A DNA stretch of 64,000 nucleotides, from sequence record MN655998.1; one strand, written 5' to 3'. The notes under the pieces are model-generated. The model did not search any database. It saw only the letters and a list, made by a program, of their open reading frames with translations, and was not told where the DNA came from. Both the position numbers and the translations under genes were made by a program. Origin of the DNA: Escherichia phage E26. Of the stretch, positions 11,225-46,169 are shown piece by piece (position 1 is the first letter of the stretch; each line of letters opens with the position of its first letter).

Positions 11225-11507
11225 TTCGTGCAATCTTCCTTTCATGATTTCGTTGGTTCTTGTCTTCACACTTTACCCACTCAACAAGATCTTTACCTAA
11301 CTCGAAAGCCCATTCTCGGTCTTGCTTTACGTTTTGTAGGTATGGGCTTTCCGACACTCGACGAAGTGATCTTGTCGTAACAAGAATGATCCCAGGAATG
11401 GTCGGATGTTCTTTTCCATATACAATAGGACGCGAGTCACTATCAATACCTTGTAAGAAGGTGTATCCTGAATCACTTAGAATCATATACTTTTTCATTT
11501 CACACAT
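11169..11507 (-). CDS. hypothetical protein
   Basis: ORF; ATG at 11507 overlaps upstream stop (TGATG coupling). Confidence 0.45.
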   Translation of the reverse strand: MCEMKKYMILSDSGYTFLQGIDSDSRPIVYGKEHPTIPGIILVTTRSLRRVSESPYLQNVKQDREWAFELGKDLVEWVKCEDKNQRNHERKIARNVHRKKLDEIKNRILQSM

Positions 11508-11764
11508 CACAGATTCCTCAACCAGTTATTAAAGCGAGCAAACCATGATGCTTTTCGTGCTTCTTTTACTTTATGTGCACGAAAACCACTGAAACACCAT
11601 TCATAATCATCACCGAAACATGATTCAACAGGAACACCCGCATTTCGTAGTTCTCTGGTCTTTATCATGAATCCTTGACATAAGGGTCGACCTTCAACAA
11701 TGATAGGAAGTTTAACTTTTTCCATGAAAGTATACCCAGCACGGTCAATAATTTCAATCTTCAT
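11507..11764 (-). CDS. hypothetical protein, paralog family B
   Basis: MKIEIID...PIIVEGR...AGVP motif shared with 11783..11980 and 14329..14550. Confidence 0.5.
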   Translation of the reverse strand: MKIEIIDRAGYTFMEKVKLPIIVEGRPLCQGFMIKTRELRNAGVPVESCFGDDYEWCFSGFRAHKVKEARKASWFARFNNWLRNL

Positions 11765-11782
11765 AATATAATCCTCAATTAG

Positions 11783-11980
11783 TTATACCGCCCAGGCTTC
11801 ATTTGCACGAAAACACCATTCATACTCAGGAAAATAACCTTTAATTGGCACGCCAGCTTTTTGTAGTTCCTGCGTTTCTACAAGATAATCAAGCCCATAA
11901 CGACGACCTTCCACGATGATAGGAAGTTTAACGCCATTCATGAAAGAAAATCCACCATCATCAATAATTTCAATTTTCAT
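11783..11980 (-). CDS. hypothetical protein, paralog family B
   Basis: N-terminal MKIEIIDxxG(F/Y)xFM motif shared with adjacent ORF. Confidence 0.5.
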   Translation of the reverse strand: MKIEIIDDGGFSFMNGVKLPIIVEGRRYGLDYLVETQELQKAGVPIKGYFPEYEWCFRANEAWAV

Positions 11981-12224
11981 TTACATTGTCTCCATAGATC
12001 TTTCCAGCAATATCAATTTCACCAGCGCGAACATCTAGGATAAGATGCGGTAGGTGTATGCAGTTTTCCCACCCTACGCGCTTCATTTCTTCTACGGTAA
12101 CGTAAGCCCACCCGTTCGCTGTAATAAAGTCTACTTCAACCTTGAGAGGAAAGCAAGACTTTTCTATGTCTTCGAATCCGACAATATGTTTTGTTGTTGA
12201 ATATGGAATATATCCGGTGATCAT
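11970..12224 (-). CDS. hypothetical protein
   Basis: ORF with ATG at 12224. Confidence 0.45.
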   Translation of the reverse strand: MITGYIPYSTTKHIVGFEDIEKSCFPLKVEVDFITANGWAYVTVEEMKRVGWENCIHLPHLILDVRAGEIDIAGKIYGDNVNEN

Positions 12225-12655
12225 TTTGTGATCTCCTTATACTCAACACACCATAAGCGGGTAGCCCATGATAAACGCTCATAACGCTGGCAGAAATCGG
12301 ACCATAGATATTGTGTACCGTCTTGCATAGTTGAAATATGCGTTTTCTCTCCTACTTTCACGAAAGAAGTATTCGATTTTGTGATCTCGACAGGAGTATA
12401 TCCGAAAGCTGGTTCCAAGTCAACATCTGAACTAAATGCCAATTTAACAGAATTTGTTTTTCTGACCGCTGTCCGGTTTCCTTCTGGGTATAGCACAGCA
12501 GGTTTAGCGCCTAAGCGGATAAACTCAGTATTTTTAATGAACAGAATATCATGATAACCGTCATATTCCGACACTTCCATAGTAACAGGAAAATCGATAT
12601 GTGCTAAACCTGGTAGATCTCGCATGTCATGAAATGTAGCCATCAACTTTTTCAT
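12221..12655 (-). CDS. hypothetical protein, paralog family C
   Basis: C-terminal VEITKSNTSFVKVGEKTHI...LSWA segment duplicated in 12666..12911. Confidence 0.5.
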   Translation of the reverse strand: MKKLMATFHDMRDLPGLAHIDFPVTMEVSEYDGYHDILFIKNTEFIRLGAKPAVLYPEGNRTAVRKTNSVKLAFSSDVDLEPAFGYTPVEITKSNTSFVKVGEKTHISTMQDGTQYLWSDFCQRYERLSWATRLWCVEYKEITK

Positions 12656-12665
12656 TTTGTATTCC

Positions 12666-12911
12666 TCACTCTTCTGTAATTACTTCATATTCAATTTTCC
12701 ATACATCAATCGCCCAGCTTAAAAGCTCATACGATTTACAGAAAGATGACCAAATATACTGTTTTCCGTGCATCGTTGTTATGTGTGTACGCTCGCCAAC
12801 CTCAACGAAAGACATATTTGACTTTGTGATAACTATAGGAATGCGACCGAAAGCTGGCGGTATTACTGATTCGTTGGTCTTCATTCTATGTTCCTCACTC
12901 TTCTGTTTCAT
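12666..12911 (-). CDS. hypothetical protein, paralog family C
   Basis: Shares ITKSNMSFVEVGERTHI and LLSWA motifs with 12221..12655. Confidence 0.5.
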   Translation of the reverse strand: MKQKSEEHRMKTNESVIPPAFGRIPIVITKSNMSFVEVGERTHITTMHGKQYIWSSFCKSYELLSWAIDVWKIEYEVITEE

Positions 12912-13422: not shown

Positions 13423-13450
13423 ATTATAGCACTATGATTTTCATTGTCAA
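13423..13450 (-). promoter_or_regulatory. sigma70-type early promoter (TTGACA-N16-TATAAT)
   Basis: -35 at 13445-13450, -10 at 13423-13428; preceded by terminator hairpin. Confidence 0.65.
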
Positions 13451-13455
13451 CACCC

Positions 13456-13487
13456 AAAAAACAAAAAGGCTATCCCGAAGGATAGCC
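13456..13487 (-). terminator. rho-independent terminator
   Basis: Hairpin GGCTATCC-CGAA-GGATAGCC followed by U-run on minus strand. Confidence 0.7.
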
Positions 13488-13494
13488 CATAAAA

Positions 13495-14274
13495 TTACAC
13501 GCGAGCACCGTAGATCGTGCCTACTTTATCCCAGCGAGGGGCATTGCCAGTAACAGCCTTACCAGCCGCACCGCCATTATATTCCGATCCCTGTCCACGG
13601 ATATTACATTTACCACCAGCACCGCCAGCATCACCACCGTTACCGCCATTATATACACCGTTGACAGACCCTTTACCTGGCGCGGAAATAGTACCAGCAG
13701 TAGCACCCCGTTCCATATTAGCAGACCCACCGGCAGCACCAAACGGACGCCCACCACCACCGCCAAAGGTTAATCTCATTTGTGAAAAAGGAGAATAATA
13801 CCCACCGCCGCCACCACCACCGCCACCACAAATAGCGCCGTTATTTGTGATGCGTAAGCGTGTGCCTATACCGTTGTTAATTGCATTACCACCAGCACCA
13901 CCAGCGGAGTTATTGCCACCATTACCACCACGCCCCCAAACATGAACACCGGGGTTAATGATCAATGTTACATATTCGTTTGTTAACGAGCTAGGGAAGT
14001 CAAGACAAGGAACGCCAGTAGATTGGGAAACAATATTACCCGTGATAGTAATTACTACAGGAGTAGACCCTTGTGCTTTCATCCAGTTAATAAGAGTGTC
14101 TTTATTGTAAGAGTTACTAGCACCAATGCTATAATGAATCTCTTTAGAGCGTCCGACCATTGCCGACATATACGCCGGACGACCTAAGCGTACAGCTTGC
14201 ATTGCGGCGCTCATCCACCGTTGACCAGTCTCGGACACCGCAGATGATCCTACCCATCCAGAAGATATTGCCAT
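13495..14274 (-). CDS. glycine-rich repeat protein of unknown function
   Basis: 259 aa; C-terminal two-thirds dominated by GGxGG/GGNGG repeats, making the DNA locally GC-rich; ATG at 14274 with GAGGAAA RBS. Confidence 0.6.
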   Translation of the reverse strand: MAISSGWVGSSAVSETGQRWMSAAMQAVRLGRPAYMSAMVGRSKEIHYSIGASNSYNKDTLINWMKAQGSTPVVITITGNIVSQSTGVPCLDFPSSLTNEYVTLIINPGVHVWGRGGNGGNNSAGGAGGNAINNGIGTRLRITNNGAICGGGGGGGGGYYSPFSQMRLTFGGGGGRPFGAAGGSANMERGATAGTISAPGKGSVNGVYNGGNGGDAGGAGGKCNIRGQGSEYNGGAAGKAVTGNAPRWDKVGTIYGARV

Positions 14275-14290
14275 AAAATTTCCTCACAAG

Positions 14291-14310
14291 AAAAGCCCCA
14301 ATTAAGGGGC
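14291..14310 (-). other. intergenic stem-loop upstream of glycine-rich gene
   Basis: Hairpin GCCCC-AATTAA-GGGGC followed by short U-run then RBS. Confidence 0.45.
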
Positions 14311-14328
14311 ATTGATTGATAATATTAC

Positions 14329-14550
14329 TTAGATGACCTCGGCTTCACCATCCAGGAAGAAAGACCATGTTTTGTTAGGATAGCGAAGCGCCCAAGATTC
14401 GGCAGTCTTAACACCAGCTTCGAACAATTGACGGCTGGTTACTTTAGCCATACCATCTTCGATGGCAACGTTTTCAATAATCATCGGGTACTTAGCGCCA
14501 CGCATGAAACCGAAACCAGCGGAAGATTTGATAATTTTAACAGTTGCCAT
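14329..14550 (-). CDS. hypothetical protein, paralog family B
   Basis: KIIKSSAGFGFM...PMIIE...AGV resembles 11507..11980 pair. Confidence 0.5.
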   Translation of the reverse strand: MATVKIIKSSAGFGFMRGAKYPMIIENVAIEDGMAKVTSRQLFEAGVKTAESWALRYPNKTWSFFLDGEAEVI

Positions 14551-14593
14551 TTTTTTGATTCTCCTAGAAAGTGTATCTCGTTTCGATGGATGT

Positions 14594-14622
14594 ATTATGC
14601 ATTAACACCGGATCGCTGTCAA
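14594..14622 (-). promoter_or_regulatory. sigma70-type early promoter (TTGACA-N17-CATAAT)
   Basis: -35 at 14617-14622, -10 at 14594-14599; conserved ATCGAAACGA leader downstream. Confidence 0.6.
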
Positions 14623-14640
14623 CACTTTCTAAGAAAAATT

Positions 14641-14925
14641 TTAAATTAATCGAATATATCCCAGAATTTCAGCACCTTTAGCCAGTCCTAAAACCTCCCA
14701 TTCAAGGTCGCCGTAGTCATAATTTGCAACCATCAGTTCACCATTTTTCATGCAGCAATCATGAGAGAAAATTTGCCCCGCATAAACTACGATAGTAATA
14801 AACTTTCCTGATTCTGGCGGTGTGGAAGACAAAGCGACCATATGACCATTCAGCTTAGTCACCAGTGATGGAACAATAAAATTCGGGCTTACCTGAATGC
14901 AGTTAAATTCGTTTGTGTCTTTCAT
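14641..14925 (-). CDS. hypothetical protein
   Basis: ORF with ATG at 14925. Confidence 0.45.
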   Translation of the reverse strand: MKDTNEFNCIQVSPNFIVPSLVTKLNGHMVALSSTPPESGKFITIVVYAGQIFSHDCCMKNGELMVANYDYGDLEWEVLGLAKGAEILGYIRLI

Positions 14926-15272
14926 GCCATACCTCGCAAAACACTAATAGCATAATCATGCTGGTTATTCATAATATCAATTGCATTGTGATAACGAGCT
15001 AAACCATCAAGGATAAATTCTTGTTTATCCTGTTTCAGTTTGGTATCACGCGCAGCCATAAGAGCATCAAGAACAGGTCCAAAGTGATTATCTAATTCAT
15101 CTTCGGTTGCAATGTTTCCTATTGCCTCGTCGATCCGTGATTCTAATGCTTGCTTTTCGTTGATCACTTGCTGGGTATATTCCAACACATCAAGAATATC
15201 GCGGGTAACGTCGCCATGATAAGGTATTCCCGCATGAAGATGATCAATTAATCGTTGAATGTCAATGTTCAT
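14922..15272 (-). CDS. hypothetical protein
   Basis: ORF with ATG at 15272, overlapping neighbours by 4 nt. Confidence 0.45.
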   Translation of the reverse strand: MNIDIQRLIDHLHAGIPYHGDVTRDILDVLEYTQQVINEKQALESRIDEAIGNIATEDELDNHFGPVLDALMAARDTKLKQDKQEFILDGLARYHNAIDIMNNQHDYAISVLRGMA

Positions 15273-15607
15273 TTGTAACCCTCCTCTGAAAGCACATCCC
15301 AGATAATCGGATCAAGGTGCATTAAATTCCACATAATAGAGTCATAACTACCGAAGCCAGAAGTAAAAATTACATCACACTGGCGATATGTCTTATGAAA
15401 ATCGGTGGCTGTCTCTGCATCAATCGGCATATCGTCACCGGAAAGCACCAGACATTTAAGAATCATAACCCTGTTAGCCGTTGGCGCTTGCTTAGTCTTT
15501 TCAGCATATTTTTCGATGATCCGTTTTGCCTTTTCTTCTTTGATACGTCCAGACCAAATCCGGTTTCGGTATTGATTCATAATAATTTCAATCACATCAT
15601 TTTGCAT
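15269..15607 (-). CDS. hypothetical protein
   Basis: ORF with ATG at 15607. Confidence 0.45.
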   Translation of the reverse strand: MQNDVIEIIMNQYRNRIWSGRIKEEKAKRIIEKYAEKTKQAPTANRVMILKCLVLSGDDMPIDAETATDFHKTYRQCDVIFTSGFGSYDSIMWNLMHLDPIIWDVLSEEGYK

Positions 15608-15806
15608 TCTTCACGGTCTCCATAATTGTTTTGTAAGCCAGTTTAAGATGATCACCGAAAAACTTTGCAGTGTTACCATTCGGATCGCGGAGCATGGTTT
15701 CTACGATCTCATCGGCAGTAACAATTTCTCCTTTCTTTGCTGCATGTTCTACCATATACTTCAAAGTTTCTTCGGAAGCAAGTGCTGCGGCTACTGGATT
15801 AATCAT
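15597..15806 (-). CDS. hypothetical protein
   Basis: ATG at 15806 preceded by AAGGAGAATCAAA leader. Confidence 0.5.
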   Translation of the reverse strand: MINPVAAALASEETLKYMVEHAAKKGEIVTADEIVETMLRDPNGNTAKFFGDHLKLAYKTIMETVKNAK

Positions 15807-15835
15807 TTTGATTCTCCTTTGTTGTCGATGTGTGC

Positions 15836-15864
15836 ATTATGCTATACCCTATTCCGGTTGTCAA
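15836..15864 (-). promoter_or_regulatory. sigma70-type early promoter (TTGACA-N17-CATAAT)
   Basis: -35 at 15859-15864, -10 at 15836-15841; preceded by terminator hairpin. Confidence 0.65.
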
Positions 15865-15869
15865 CACCT

Positions 15870-15900
15870 AAAAACAAAAAAGCCACCCTTTCGGATGGCT
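15870..15900 (-). terminator. rho-independent terminator
   Basis: Hairpin AGCCACCC-TTTC-GGATGGCT followed by U-run on minus strand. Confidence 0.65.
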
Positions 15901-16133
15901 TTTGATTATATTTTATTCACGTCCATTTGTATAGTAGTGTTTGAATCGACCTTTGCTAAACTAGTTAAACATAGTAACCAATTCACCATCCCTTTCCAAT
16001 GATAACCCTTCCTCGTCTTAGACGGGTCTTCCGATTCGGCAGTAATTGAACACGCGAAAGTATGAGGAAACCAAATAGTTGTGTTAATGCTAGTATTCTT
16101 TTACTTATGGTATGCATCCCACGGTGACTAACA

Positions 16134-44370: not shown

Positions 44371-46169
44371 AACAATTAATTAATATCGGTAACGTTGTTG
44401 ATGACGGTACAGGTGATTATTTAAGAAAAGGTGGTCAAAAGATTAATGACAACTTTTCTGAACTTTATACTAAGCTGGGGGATGGTGATATCCCTCATGC
44501 ATCCGGCGCGTGGAAAACTCACACACAACCAGTATTAAAACCAAATTTTGGTGATGCATGGGCGATTAATACAACGAACAACTCTGTTTCTGTTGAATTG
44601 CCTAAAGGAAGCGCGAGTGATTACAATAAAACAATTAAACTTCGTGATGTTTGGCGCTCATGGGCTGCACATAACGTAACATTGAAGCCAGCACAAGGTG
44701 ATACCATTAAGGGATCTCCAATCGACCGTGAGTTGTATAAAGATTTCATGGATGTTGAATTGGTTTATTGTGCTCCTGGACGTTGGGAATATGTCGAAAA
44801 TAAACGAGTAGATACTATCACCACTTCCGATTTAAGCACAGTCGCCAAAGAAGTTTATATTGCAACCGAAGGACAAACAGACTTCCCCAATGTGTTTGGT
44901 TCCAATACTTACAATATTCGAAATGTTGAAGTGTATTATCGCGGTAACTTGCTTTATTATGGCAAGGATTTAACCGATGATTCTAACTATGGTTCAATCG
45001 GTGAAAACGGTGATATTGTTCCGCTGGACGGTAAAAGCATTAAATTACGCTTCCCTTGTTCGGCGGGTGATACCATTCAAATCATAACTTATATGGACGG
45101 TATCGCATCCTTCCGGTCAAGCTATATTACTCATACAATCCGCGTTTATGAAACAGGAATGACCACTTTGGAATCCATCCCTGGTGAAGTTTGGGTTGGT
45201 GAACTAGCTAATAAGAAAGAATTTACTAATGCTGAATTAGGCGTAAGTAAGCGAGATCTTATTAATCCAAATTCATTTGAATTGCTAATCAACGGCACAC
45301 AAATGATTAAAGCGGGTGATGCGGATTTACCTTCCTTTATTTGTGAAGGCGCTGACGGTGAAACGGAAGAAACCTGCGTACTTGCTGGCGGTCAATGGGT
45401 GGAATCTGGGGAAGATTATTCATTGATGTTCGACGAAAACAGCGTGGTGACTGGTATTAAATTATCTAAAGCACTAGATAACCGAGATACTATCACAATT
45501 CGCTGGTTTAATAATGATATCGGAACATTAATGGAATGGGACGGTGTAGGCGGTATTAAAGAAAAAGCAGATAAAATCTATCTTAATAACGAAGATGAAG
45601 TTACTCTGACAAATCGAATTGAATATACCGATTTCCAGAATCCAAGCCAAGCAACTAAACGCCCAATGGAAGATTATACAGGTCGTGTGATGGATATCTA
45701 TTCCATATTCGATATTTTCTATCCTATAGGCACAATTTATGAAAATGCGCATAACCCAGCTAACCCAGCGACCTATATGGGATTTGGTACATGGGTACGG
45801 TATGCGGAAGGTGAATTTTTGGTTGGTTGGTCATCCGATGCAAGCGATCAAAACTTCGCACTAAACAATAACGATCTTGATACACATGGTCAACCTACAC
45901 ACACCGCAGGTGGTAACGGTGGTGATGTTGCATATCAGATCAAGAAAAATATGATTCCTGAATTACAGAGCAGCGATCGAGTTCTTGTAAAAGATGATAA
46001 CGGAAATATTATTATCGGTGGTTGTCAGGTAGATCCTGATGCAGTAGGTCCAGCGTTTACCAAATATCGCGAAGATAATGTTAAAGTTAATCAGGGAAAT
46101 ACTGACCCATCAATGATGGGTATTCTTCCTCCATACAGAACTGTCTATCGTTGGCTAAGGGTAGGTTAA
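44367..46169 (+). CDS. 10: baseplate wedge subunit and tail pin gp10
   Basis: Synteny and size (600 aa). Confidence 0.8.
   Translation: MKQLINIGNVVDDGTGDYLRKGGQKINDNFSELYTKLGDGDIPHASGAWKTHTQPVLKPNFGDAWAINTTNNSVSVELPKGSASDYNKTIKLRDVWRSWAAHNVTLKPAQGDTIKGSPIDRELYKDFMDVELVYCAPGRWEYVENKRVDTITTSDLSTVAKEVYIATEGQTDFPNVFGSNTYNIRNVEVYYRGNLLYYGKDLTDDSNYGSIGENGDIVPLDGKSIKLRFPCSAGDTIQIITYMDGIASFRSSYITHTIRVYETGMTTLESIPGEVWVGELANKKEFTNAELGVSKRDLINPNSFELLINGTQMIKAGDADLPSFICEGADGETEETCVLAGGQWVESGEDYSLMFDENSVVTGIKLSKALDNRDTITIRWFNNDIGTLMEWDGVGGIKEKADKIYLNNEDEVTLTNRIEYTDFQNPSQATKRPMEDYTGRVMDIYSIFDIFYPIGTIYENAHNPANPATYMGFGTWVRYAEGEFLVGWSSDASDQNFALNNNDLDTHGQPTHTAGGNGGDVAYQIKKNMIPELQSSDRVLVKDDNGNIIIGGCQVDPDAVGPAFTKYREDNVKVNQGNTDPSMMGILPPYRTVYRWLRVG

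Follow-up and report, generated by a model that had tools for sequence, protein, structure and literature searches.

Known relatives of the protein analysed here include the gp38 tip adhesins of the T2/T6/K3-type Tequatroviruses and that of Salmonella phage S16 (PDB 6F45). The domain model of gp38 given in PMC12032242, citing Dunne 2018, is that of a monomer built from an attachment domain, a beta-helix and a polyglycine-II (PGII) sandwich. Five glycine-rich motifs make up the core of this sandwich and four hypervariable segments form the receptor-contacting loops; the N-terminal domain binds the tip of gp37 after the C-terminal chaperone of gp37 has been removed (PMC12032242, PMC3157838, PMC9569957). 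For RB49, the same chaperone-cleavage assembly of gp37 has been described, with one gp38 monomer per long tail fibre, or about six copies per virion (PMC9569957). Modular shuffling at conserved gp38 motifs has been reported by Tetart 1998 and Trojet 2011 (PMC3157838), and in related phages the receptor has been switched by swapping gp38 (preprint 10.64898/2026.04.02.716166). In S16 and these Tequatroviruses, gene 38 is on the late strand, with gene 37 directly on one side and the holin gene t on the other.

In the Krischviruses, the genus of RB49, gene 38 has already been reported to be displaced (Trojet 2011, PMC3157838), and in a 2026 preprint all five of the Krischviruses studied have gp38 ‘approximately 55 kb downstream of gp37’ (preprint 10.64898/2026.04.02.716166), while one sentence of PMC12032242 seems to limit the displacement to two Krischvirus isolates. 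The hyperplastic regions of RB49 and phi1 also contain PeSL cassettes, defined as a stem-loop terminator, an AT-rich region and a near-consensus sigma-70 promoter directly before an open reading frame (ORF); their stem-loops have been shown to terminate transcription (Arbiol 2010, PMC2839356).

We analysed a 64,000-nucleotide stretch of the genome of Escherichia phage E26 (sequence record MN655998.1), referred to throughout as the window, and within it an ORF that an initial annotation, made from the letters alone, had described as a 259-amino-acid (aa) glycine-repeat protein, embedded among early genes, atypical in composition of small T4 early proteins and apparently acquired laterally. The ORF itself stands as described, at 13495..14274 on the minus strand with an ATG start and an unbroken frame. 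The homology search that had been proposed as a check returned full-length matches to gp38 adhesins, and a small early-type protein gives way to a predicted structural component of the tail fibre. Residues 45–259 cover model positions 1–218 of 218 in Pfam GP38 (PF05268, E = 9.3e-73), residues 1–40 cover positions 1–40 of 40 in Gp38_N (PF21721, E = 3.9e-18), and the ORF matches PHROG 2056, ‘tail fiber protein; host specificity’ (E = 4.9e-102). Residues 1–257 align to residues 1–247 of S16 gp38 (PDB 6F45_D, E = 2.3e-50), with 46.5% identity across 260 aligned columns, and a second solved gp38, the gp38 fusion in PDB 9v85, aligns as well. By these matches the ORF is gene 38, encoding gp38, the long-tail-fibre tip adhesin of an RB49-like Krischvirus. 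As an explanation of the whole locus, we consider it highly probable that this is the displaced Krischvirus gene 38 carrying a Tsx-type allele with a recombined specificity cassette. The parts of the gene referred to below are as follows.

13495..14274, minus strand: gene 38, gp38 tip adhesin (receptor-binding protein), 259 aa, assigned from Pfam, PHROG and PDB matches
14155..14274, minus strand: codons 1–40, predicted N-terminal attachment domain docking on the gp37 tip, from the Gp38_N match
13561..13944, minus strand: codons 111–238, exchanged receptor-specificity cassette in which glycine-rich motifs alternate with hypervariable segments (predicted PGII sandwich region), from maximum chi-square analysis and segment identities

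The protein shares its three-part architecture and its Pfam families with the gp38 of S16 (6F45) and of the T2/T6/K3-type Tequatroviruses. Both the glycine-rich motifs and the hypervariable segments are present, with allele variation confined to the segments between the glycine runs, and the C-terminus (...W.KVGTIYG.RV) is common to Tequatrovirus alleles and has a close match in the 9v85 gp38 fusion. The ‘GGxGG repeats’ that had attracted attention would be the structural core of a known adhesin fold. By analogy with S16, the N-terminal 40 residues would dock on the trimeric gp37 tip once the intramolecular chaperone has been cleaved, and the glycine-rich motifs would pack as a PGII sandwich from which the hypervariable loops contact the outer-membrane receptor. 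Gene 37 lies outside the window; in the relative Phi1, gp37 (980 aa) carries a Peptidase_S74 domain at residues 872–931 (E = 1.2e-11). A single-sequence AlphaFold2 model of gp38 was unusable (pLDDT 32.8), and the PGII sandwich and beta-helix fold is a prediction drawn solely from homology to 6F45_D.

The division into an ordinary N-terminal part and a glycine-rich part was correctly seen in the initial annotation, although the latter is shorter than the approximately 170 residues given there: with its first residue at 114 (GRGGNGG), it is about 146 residues long. Glycine accounts for 23% of the whole 259-aa protein and for 34% of residues 113–259, with runs at residues 116–120, 125–129, 150–158, 171–175 and 210–221. 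The DNA is likewise richer in GC than its surroundings, as had been claimed, with 300-bp windows peaking at 0.53 over 13500–13950, most flanking windows at about 0.37–0.42 and a value of 0.4075 for the whole window. The reading of this peak as a sign of foreign origin did not survive a codon-usage check. By codon position, the GC content of gp38 is 0.546, 0.592 and 0.354. With 23 long ORFs of the window taken as background, GC at third positions (GC3) is 0.354 for gp38 versus 0.365 (0.365 versus 0.374 at non-glycine codons). Glycine is encoded by GGT, GGC, GGG and GGA at 60, 22, 10 and 8% in gp38 and at 58, 17, 8 and 16% in the background, and the GC content back-calculated from the amino acids of gp38 and the codon usage of the window is 0.505, compared with 0.497 observed. 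Since GC3, the expected GC and the choice among glycine codons all agree with the phage’s own usage, the GC excess is no foreign signature, and the peak arises only from glycine and alanine codons. A repeat-expansion locus was also considered and rejected, as the DNA repeats are only short, imperfect units of 9 and 12 nucleotides built of glycine codons.

The surroundings of the gene are those of a resident. The surrounding 3 kb are 93–97% identical to Krischvirus genomes (011D4, PHB13, Makalu, ECD7, GEC-3S, RB49, Phi1 and others), reaching 97.4% DNA identity over 3 kb in Krischvirus 011D4, and the locus is colinear in 43 phage records. In all nine relatives that we inspected, annotated or aligned (GEC-3S, Phi1, RB49, ECD7, 011D4, Makalu_003, PHB13, JK32 and GoldenSnicker), this locus holds a homologue that shares the repeats. 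The initial annotation had itself named such conservation as grounds for refutation, and the view of the gene as a laterally acquired oddity at this site is thereby overturned. The window differs from GEC-3S, Phi1 and RB49 by a 229-bp insertion about 600 bp downstream of gp38; a 7% gap in many of the 3-kb matches lies not inside gp38 but at this downstream insertion with its extra small ORF.

Compared with the Tequatrovirus-type arrangement, genes 37 and 38 are here about 55 kb apart, and gene 38 is on the early strand and has no late promoter. Phi1 illustrates the genus-typical layout: downstream of gene 37 (151643–154585) come a 79-aa ORF and the holin gene t. Gene 38 does not occupy the position directly after gene 37 and before t, which is typical of such adhesin genes without defining them, and is found instead at 44989–45765 on the opposite strand, with the rI/tk region on one side and a run of small hypothetical genes on the other. 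Gene 38 is displaced at every locus examined here, unlike what the sentence of PMC12032242 naming two isolates seems to say. The displaced position of gene 38, in the hyperplastic early-gene region on the early-gene strand and about 55 kb from gene 37, is ancestral to the genus, as has been published. The idea of lateral acquisition keeps part of its force, in that the gene is displaced from gene 37 (in the literature, displaced or acquired in the ancestor of the genus) and its glycine-rich codons 111–238 have been exchanged relative to RB49, Phi1 and ECD7; what falls away is a recent foreign gene.

Comparison of eleven gp38 alleles shows how the exchanged part is delimited. In a maximum chi-square analysis the 5′ breakpoint falls at codon 111, and none of 2,000 permutations reached the observed value; informative sites favour Krischvirus over Tequatrovirus by 88–94 to 1–2 to the left of this codon, versus 45–52 to 67–73 to its right. 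Over codons 1–110, DNA identity is 98.5% to RB49 and 70.6% to SholemSchwarzbard (Sholem), and more broadly 98–99% to RB49, Phi1 and ECD7 versus about 71% to the Tequatroviruses. Codons 111–149 are roughly equidistant from both groups (71–76%; RB49 76.1%, Sholem 73.5%). Over codons 150–238 the order is reversed, with 68–71% identity to the RB49-type alleles (RB49 68.3%) and 86–88% to slur02 and SholemSchwarzbard (Sholem 88.0%), two Tequatroviruses whose gene 38 keeps the canonical 37-38-t order. Krischvirus similarity then returns in codons 239–259 (Krischviruses 94–100%, RB49 100%; Sholem 71.4%).

Over the first 40 codons, amino acid identity is 100% in seven of eight Krischvirus alleles and 97.5% in the eighth, that of PHB13, but drops to 62% for the Tequatroviruses slur02, Sholem and Shfl2; this conservation within the genus fits co-adaptation to its own gp37. 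Tsx-type and OmpA-type Krischvirus alleles are separated by 36 fixed differences, every one of them at residues 111–230. The OmpA-type gp38 of RB49, Phi1 and ECD7 is encoded at the same displaced locus, with promoter, hairpin and ribosome-binding site almost unchanged, and differs from that of the window over codons 111–238 (68–76% DNA identity, 36 fixed amino acid differences and two indels in variable segments). On these comparisons, the gp38 gene is resident in the genus and its specificity cassette has been exchanged. The Tsx-type cassette differs from the OmpA-type one through recombination where the glycine-rich domain has its conserved edges, and its distal part is related to the alleles of slur02 and SholemSchwarzbard. 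With only 86–88% DNA identity over codons 150–238 and differences at many synonymous sites, the Tequatrovirus alleles sampled are relatives of the exchange partner and not the partner itself.

The allele points to a receptor. The gp38 of GEC-3S, JK32 and GoldenSnicker, all Tsx-type, is encoded at the same locus with the same flanking elements, and is 98–99.6% identical to that of the window at the amino acid level: GEC-3S (99.6%) differs at R189Q, and JK32 and GoldenSnicker are 98% identical, with R168K as the sole difference from JK32 over residues 113–259. Genome-wide RB-TnSeq identified Tsx as the primary and Kdo as the secondary receptor of JK32 and GoldenSnicker, and OmpA/Kdo for RB49 (supplement to preprint 10.64898/2026.04.02.716166); Tsx-type and OmpA-type Krischviruses have both been found independently (PMC12032242). 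The hypervariable segments of the window’s gp38 match those of phages that experimentally depend on Tsx, and given this near-identity to alleles with a receptor mapped by RB-TnSeq, we predict that the receptor of this phage is most likely Tsx. One substitution in a gp38 loop can be enough to change the receptor: Q206L switches the receptor from OmpF to OmpW (preprint 10.64898/2026.04.02.716166), and E230K alters the host range of RB49, whose host-range mutants map to gp38 (PMC9569957). RB49 uses OmpA and some O antigens, compared with the Tsx-type allele of the window, and since RB49-like gp38 can also use O antigens (PMC9569957), Tsx may not be the only receptor.

The elements around the gene that may bear on its expression are listed here in order of position.

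13423..13488, minus strand: complete PeSL-type cassette just 3′ of gp38, with a strong terminator (13488..13467) followed by the promoter TTGACA-16-TATAAT (13450..13423)
14275..14287, minus strand: gp38 ribosome-binding region GAGGAAATTTT before the ATG, with no GGAG, as read from the sequence
14295..14310, minus strand: orphan stem-loop GCCCC-TTAATT-GGGGC followed by a T-tract, TTTTCTTG, a terminator-like site
14329..14550, minus strand: 73-aa ORF, phrog_7345 (match to PHROG 7345, E = 4.9e-34)
14594..14622, minus strand: nearest upstream promoter, sigma-70 early-type TTGACA-17-CATAAT (11/12 match)
16855..16862, minus strand: nearest perfect late-promoter motif TATAAATA, between tk and rI, about 2.6 kb upstream of gp38

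The initial annotation had noted a short hairpin directly before the ribosome-binding site and the lack of a cassette promoter belonging to the gene itself, and this is borne out: no sigma-70-type promoter was found on the gp38 strand between 14275 and 14594, and the nearest strong one lies upstream of the preceding 73-aa ORF. Both hexamers of that promoter (14622..14594) are kept in seven Krischviruses, and it is annotated as a promoter in GEC-3S. The 73-aa ORF has two paralogues elsewhere in the window and no Pfam match, and its DNA is almost invariant across the genus; it is probably co-transcribed with gp38, upstream of it. The whole arrangement of promoter, 73-aa ORF, hairpin and gp38 is almost invariant in seven Krischviruses.

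The two stem-loops that border gp38 are of different kinds. The downstream element is a textbook PeSL cassette in the sense of Arbiol 2010, with a hairpin of −15.3 kcal/mol (z = −4.55) and a perfect sigma-70 promoter, and is conserved in GEC-3S and Phi1. The upstream stem-loop (14310..14295) resembles a PeSL stem-loop in pairing a G-tract with a C-tract, but differs in its length of 5 bp, compared with 9–11 bp, and in lacking the promoter half that the PeSL definition includes. It lies nine bases before the GAGGA and ATG of gp38, has only five G-C pairs and is no more stable in context than shuffled sequence (z = −0.41), compared with a z of about −4.5 for the bracketing 9–11-bp terminators; it is invariant in seven Krischviruses and annotated as a terminator in GEC-3S. 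From sequence, we regard it as a likely leaky terminator or attenuator. A riboregulator that sequesters the Shine–Dalgarno sequence was rejected, the extended hairpin fold being no better than shuffled sequence (z = −0.41).

On the minus strand from 14275 to 16855 there is no late promoter TATAAATA, and only a one-mismatch site, TATGAATA, occurs at 14966–14973, inside a gene. For RB49, the one late promoter predicted in the corresponding region is Pl:48756, before rI, which matches 16855..16862 (Nolan 2006 supplement, PMC1524935). The literature was searched for transcriptomes and virion proteomes of Krischviruses, and nothing relevant was found. In the mechanism that we propose, transcription that starts at the early promoter (14622), at the late promoter (16862) or at both would read through the weak hairpin and probably yield small amounts of gp38; with about six copies of gp38 per virion, low expression could suffice.

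T4 RegB cuts GGAG in the leaders of early genes. The window encodes a homologue of this endoribonuclease at 19685–20149 (PF10715, E = 3e-48), and the first gene after each PeSL promoter has the leader AGGAGAATCAAA, which contains GGAG; the leader of gp38 reads GAGGAA. We speculate that the gp38 mRNA, with its non-GGAG Shine–Dalgarno sequence, might be spared from RegB. Taken one step further, the Krischvirus adhesin, a structural virion protein, could run on a schedule apart from that of the other tail-fibre proteins, with low-level early sigma-70 read-through of the conserved and deliberately weak stem-loop and sparing from RegB in place of a gp55 late promoter, an idea that we put forward as tentative and give rather less than even chances.

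Other accounts of the locus fare less well than that of a displaced gene 38 with an exchanged cassette. A recent lateral gain from a GC-richer source, of a gene for a glycine-repeat early protein unrelated to virion structure, would fit the GC peak of 0.53 against about 0.39, the setting amid small early genes on their own strand and the lack of a late promoter; such an origin is almost certainly excluded, however, by the phage-like GC3, glycine codon choice and expected GC, by the strong full-length adhesin matches, by the conservation of the locus and its flanks across the genus, and by the 94–100% DNA identity of codons 1–110 and 239–259 to RB49, Phi1 and ECD7. It is also very improbable that the protein is a T4-type gp38, that is, a chaperone for gp37 assembly that is not in the virion. 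The records of GEC-3S, PHB13, ELT4 and JEP8 do carry ‘assembly catalyst’ or ‘tail assembly’ labels, and placement in the early region might suit a chaperone, but the architecture is that of T2/T6/S16, and the protein can be aligned from end to end with the S16 adhesin, which was crystallised at the tip of its fibre. In T4 the adhesin function lies in gp37 itself, and the gp38 adhesin of T2/T6 is an unrelated protein (Trojet 2011); moreover, the gp37 of this genus has its own Peptidase_S74 intramolecular chaperone, and the mapping of RB49 host-range mutations to gp38 (PMC9569957) speaks against a protein confined to assembly.

An account that draws on the flanking elements would treat the whole gene as a movable host-range cassette that co-infecting phages exchange through PeSL recombination or mini-circles, explaining both its displacement and its allelic diversity. 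Both processes have been shown to act on other ORFs of RB49 and phi1 (PMC2839356), and gene 38 lies in the hyperplastic region with a stem-loop on each side and a complete PeSL directly downstream. The breakpoints between allele classes are nonetheless intragenic (codons about 111 and 238) and do not coincide with the stem-loops, so whole-gene PeSL swapping is disfavoured as the source of present allele diversity. The upstream stem-loop without a promoter is also not a full PeSL, and the flanks are nearly invariant, with no sign of repeated insertion. We judge this account unlikely, while noting that PeSL mobility may lie behind the original, ancient displacement.

The gene, its family and its unusual, genus-typical location are already known, and the allele-level findings are not new biology; the cassette boundaries and the Tsx prediction are useful annotation. 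The gene encodes the host-range determinant of the phage, yet its distance from gene 37 makes it easy to overlook or to misname; the labels ‘assembly catalyst’ and ‘hypothetical protein’ both occur among several database records. The predicted use of Tsx would be useful in designing phage-therapy cocktails and in anticipating resistance through loss of tsx, and the sharply bounded cassette at codons 111–238 offers a place to re-engineer host range. If the tentative separate schedule of the Krischvirus adhesin is true, the host-range determinant would have been left as a self-contained unit in a recombination-prone region.

At every Krischvirus locus examined here, gene 38, which encodes the long-tail-fibre tip adhesin gp38, was displaced from its usual position between gene 37 and the holin gene t. 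In Phi1, this slot is occupied instead by a 79-amino acid ORF, ORF252 (record 154627-154866; L003, a stretch of the Phi1 record, 16628-16867), which matched phrog_402 (E=5.6e-20) and returned no match in a Pfam search; a counterpart in RB49 was mentioned previously (Trojet 2011, PMC3157838). One conceivable role for this ORF is that of a fibre chaperone. A recent preprint likewise describes gp38 as displaced in five of five Krischviruses (10.64898/2026.04.02.716166). The statement that gp38 lies apart from the holin gene only in Krischviruses FL37 and FL38 (PMC12032242) appears at odds with both the preprint and all loci examined here, possibly an artefactual discrepancy arising from genome start coordinates or from the assignment of phages to the genus.

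The early region in which E26 gene 38 resides contains the following features, including three paralogs of the phrog_7345 small-protein family (E=1e-34 to 1e-39).

Features of the E26 early region
11507-11764, minus strand, phrog_7345 paralog (phrog_7345 match)
11783-11980, minus strand, phrog_7345 paralog (phrog_7345 match)
12666..12911, minus strand, small extra ORF borne by a 229-bp insertion (comparison with GEC-3S and Phi1)
13393, 14550 and 15806, minus strand, start codons with the AGGAGAATCAAA-ATG leader (first genes after early promoter cassettes)
14329-14550, minus strand, phrog_7345 paralog immediately upstream of gp38 (phrog_7345 match)
18171-18626, minus strand, ORF with a Macro domain (E=1.3e-6)
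19685-20149, minus strand, RegB endoribonuclease homolog (PF10715, E=3e-48)
20966-21664, minus strand, ORF with an RlaP-type nucleotidyltransferase domain (E=3.7e-14)
21751-22167, minus strand, short glycine-radical-domain protein of 138 amino acids (E=1.5e-16)

The phrog_7345 copy just upstream of gp38, whose DNA is almost unchanged in seven Krischviruses, is probably co-transcribed with it. Behind every early promoter cassette, the first gene has a common leader, ...AGGAGAATCAAA-ATG, within which lies GGAG; gp38 is preceded by GAGGAAATTTT, which lacks this motif. Antisense to gp38, a 93-amino acid proline-rich ORF (13517-13798, plus strand; PPAPPASPPLPPL...) was rejected as a gene, being the mirror image of the gp38 glycine codons (GGN read as NCC).

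Downstream of gp38, E26 carries an extra 229 bp (12660-12890) relative to GEC-3S and Phi1. The product of the ORF on this insertion resembles the C-terminal half of the neighbouring 144-amino acid ORF (12221..12655), and GAAGAGTGAGGAA is repeated at the insertion junction, giving the ORF the look of a partial paralog or duplication. Alignment coverage suggests that 011D4, PHB13, Makalu and ECD7 share the insertion, and that RB49, JK32 and other matches of 93% coverage lack it.

Counted over the entire window, octamers differing at no more than one position from the late-promoter consensus TATAAATA were strongly depleted, with 78 observed against 131 ± 11.7 expected from 100 shuffles, all 100 of which gave at least 78; exact matches numbered 7 against 5.9 expected. 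The depletion of these near-consensus octamers suggests selection against spurious late promoters.
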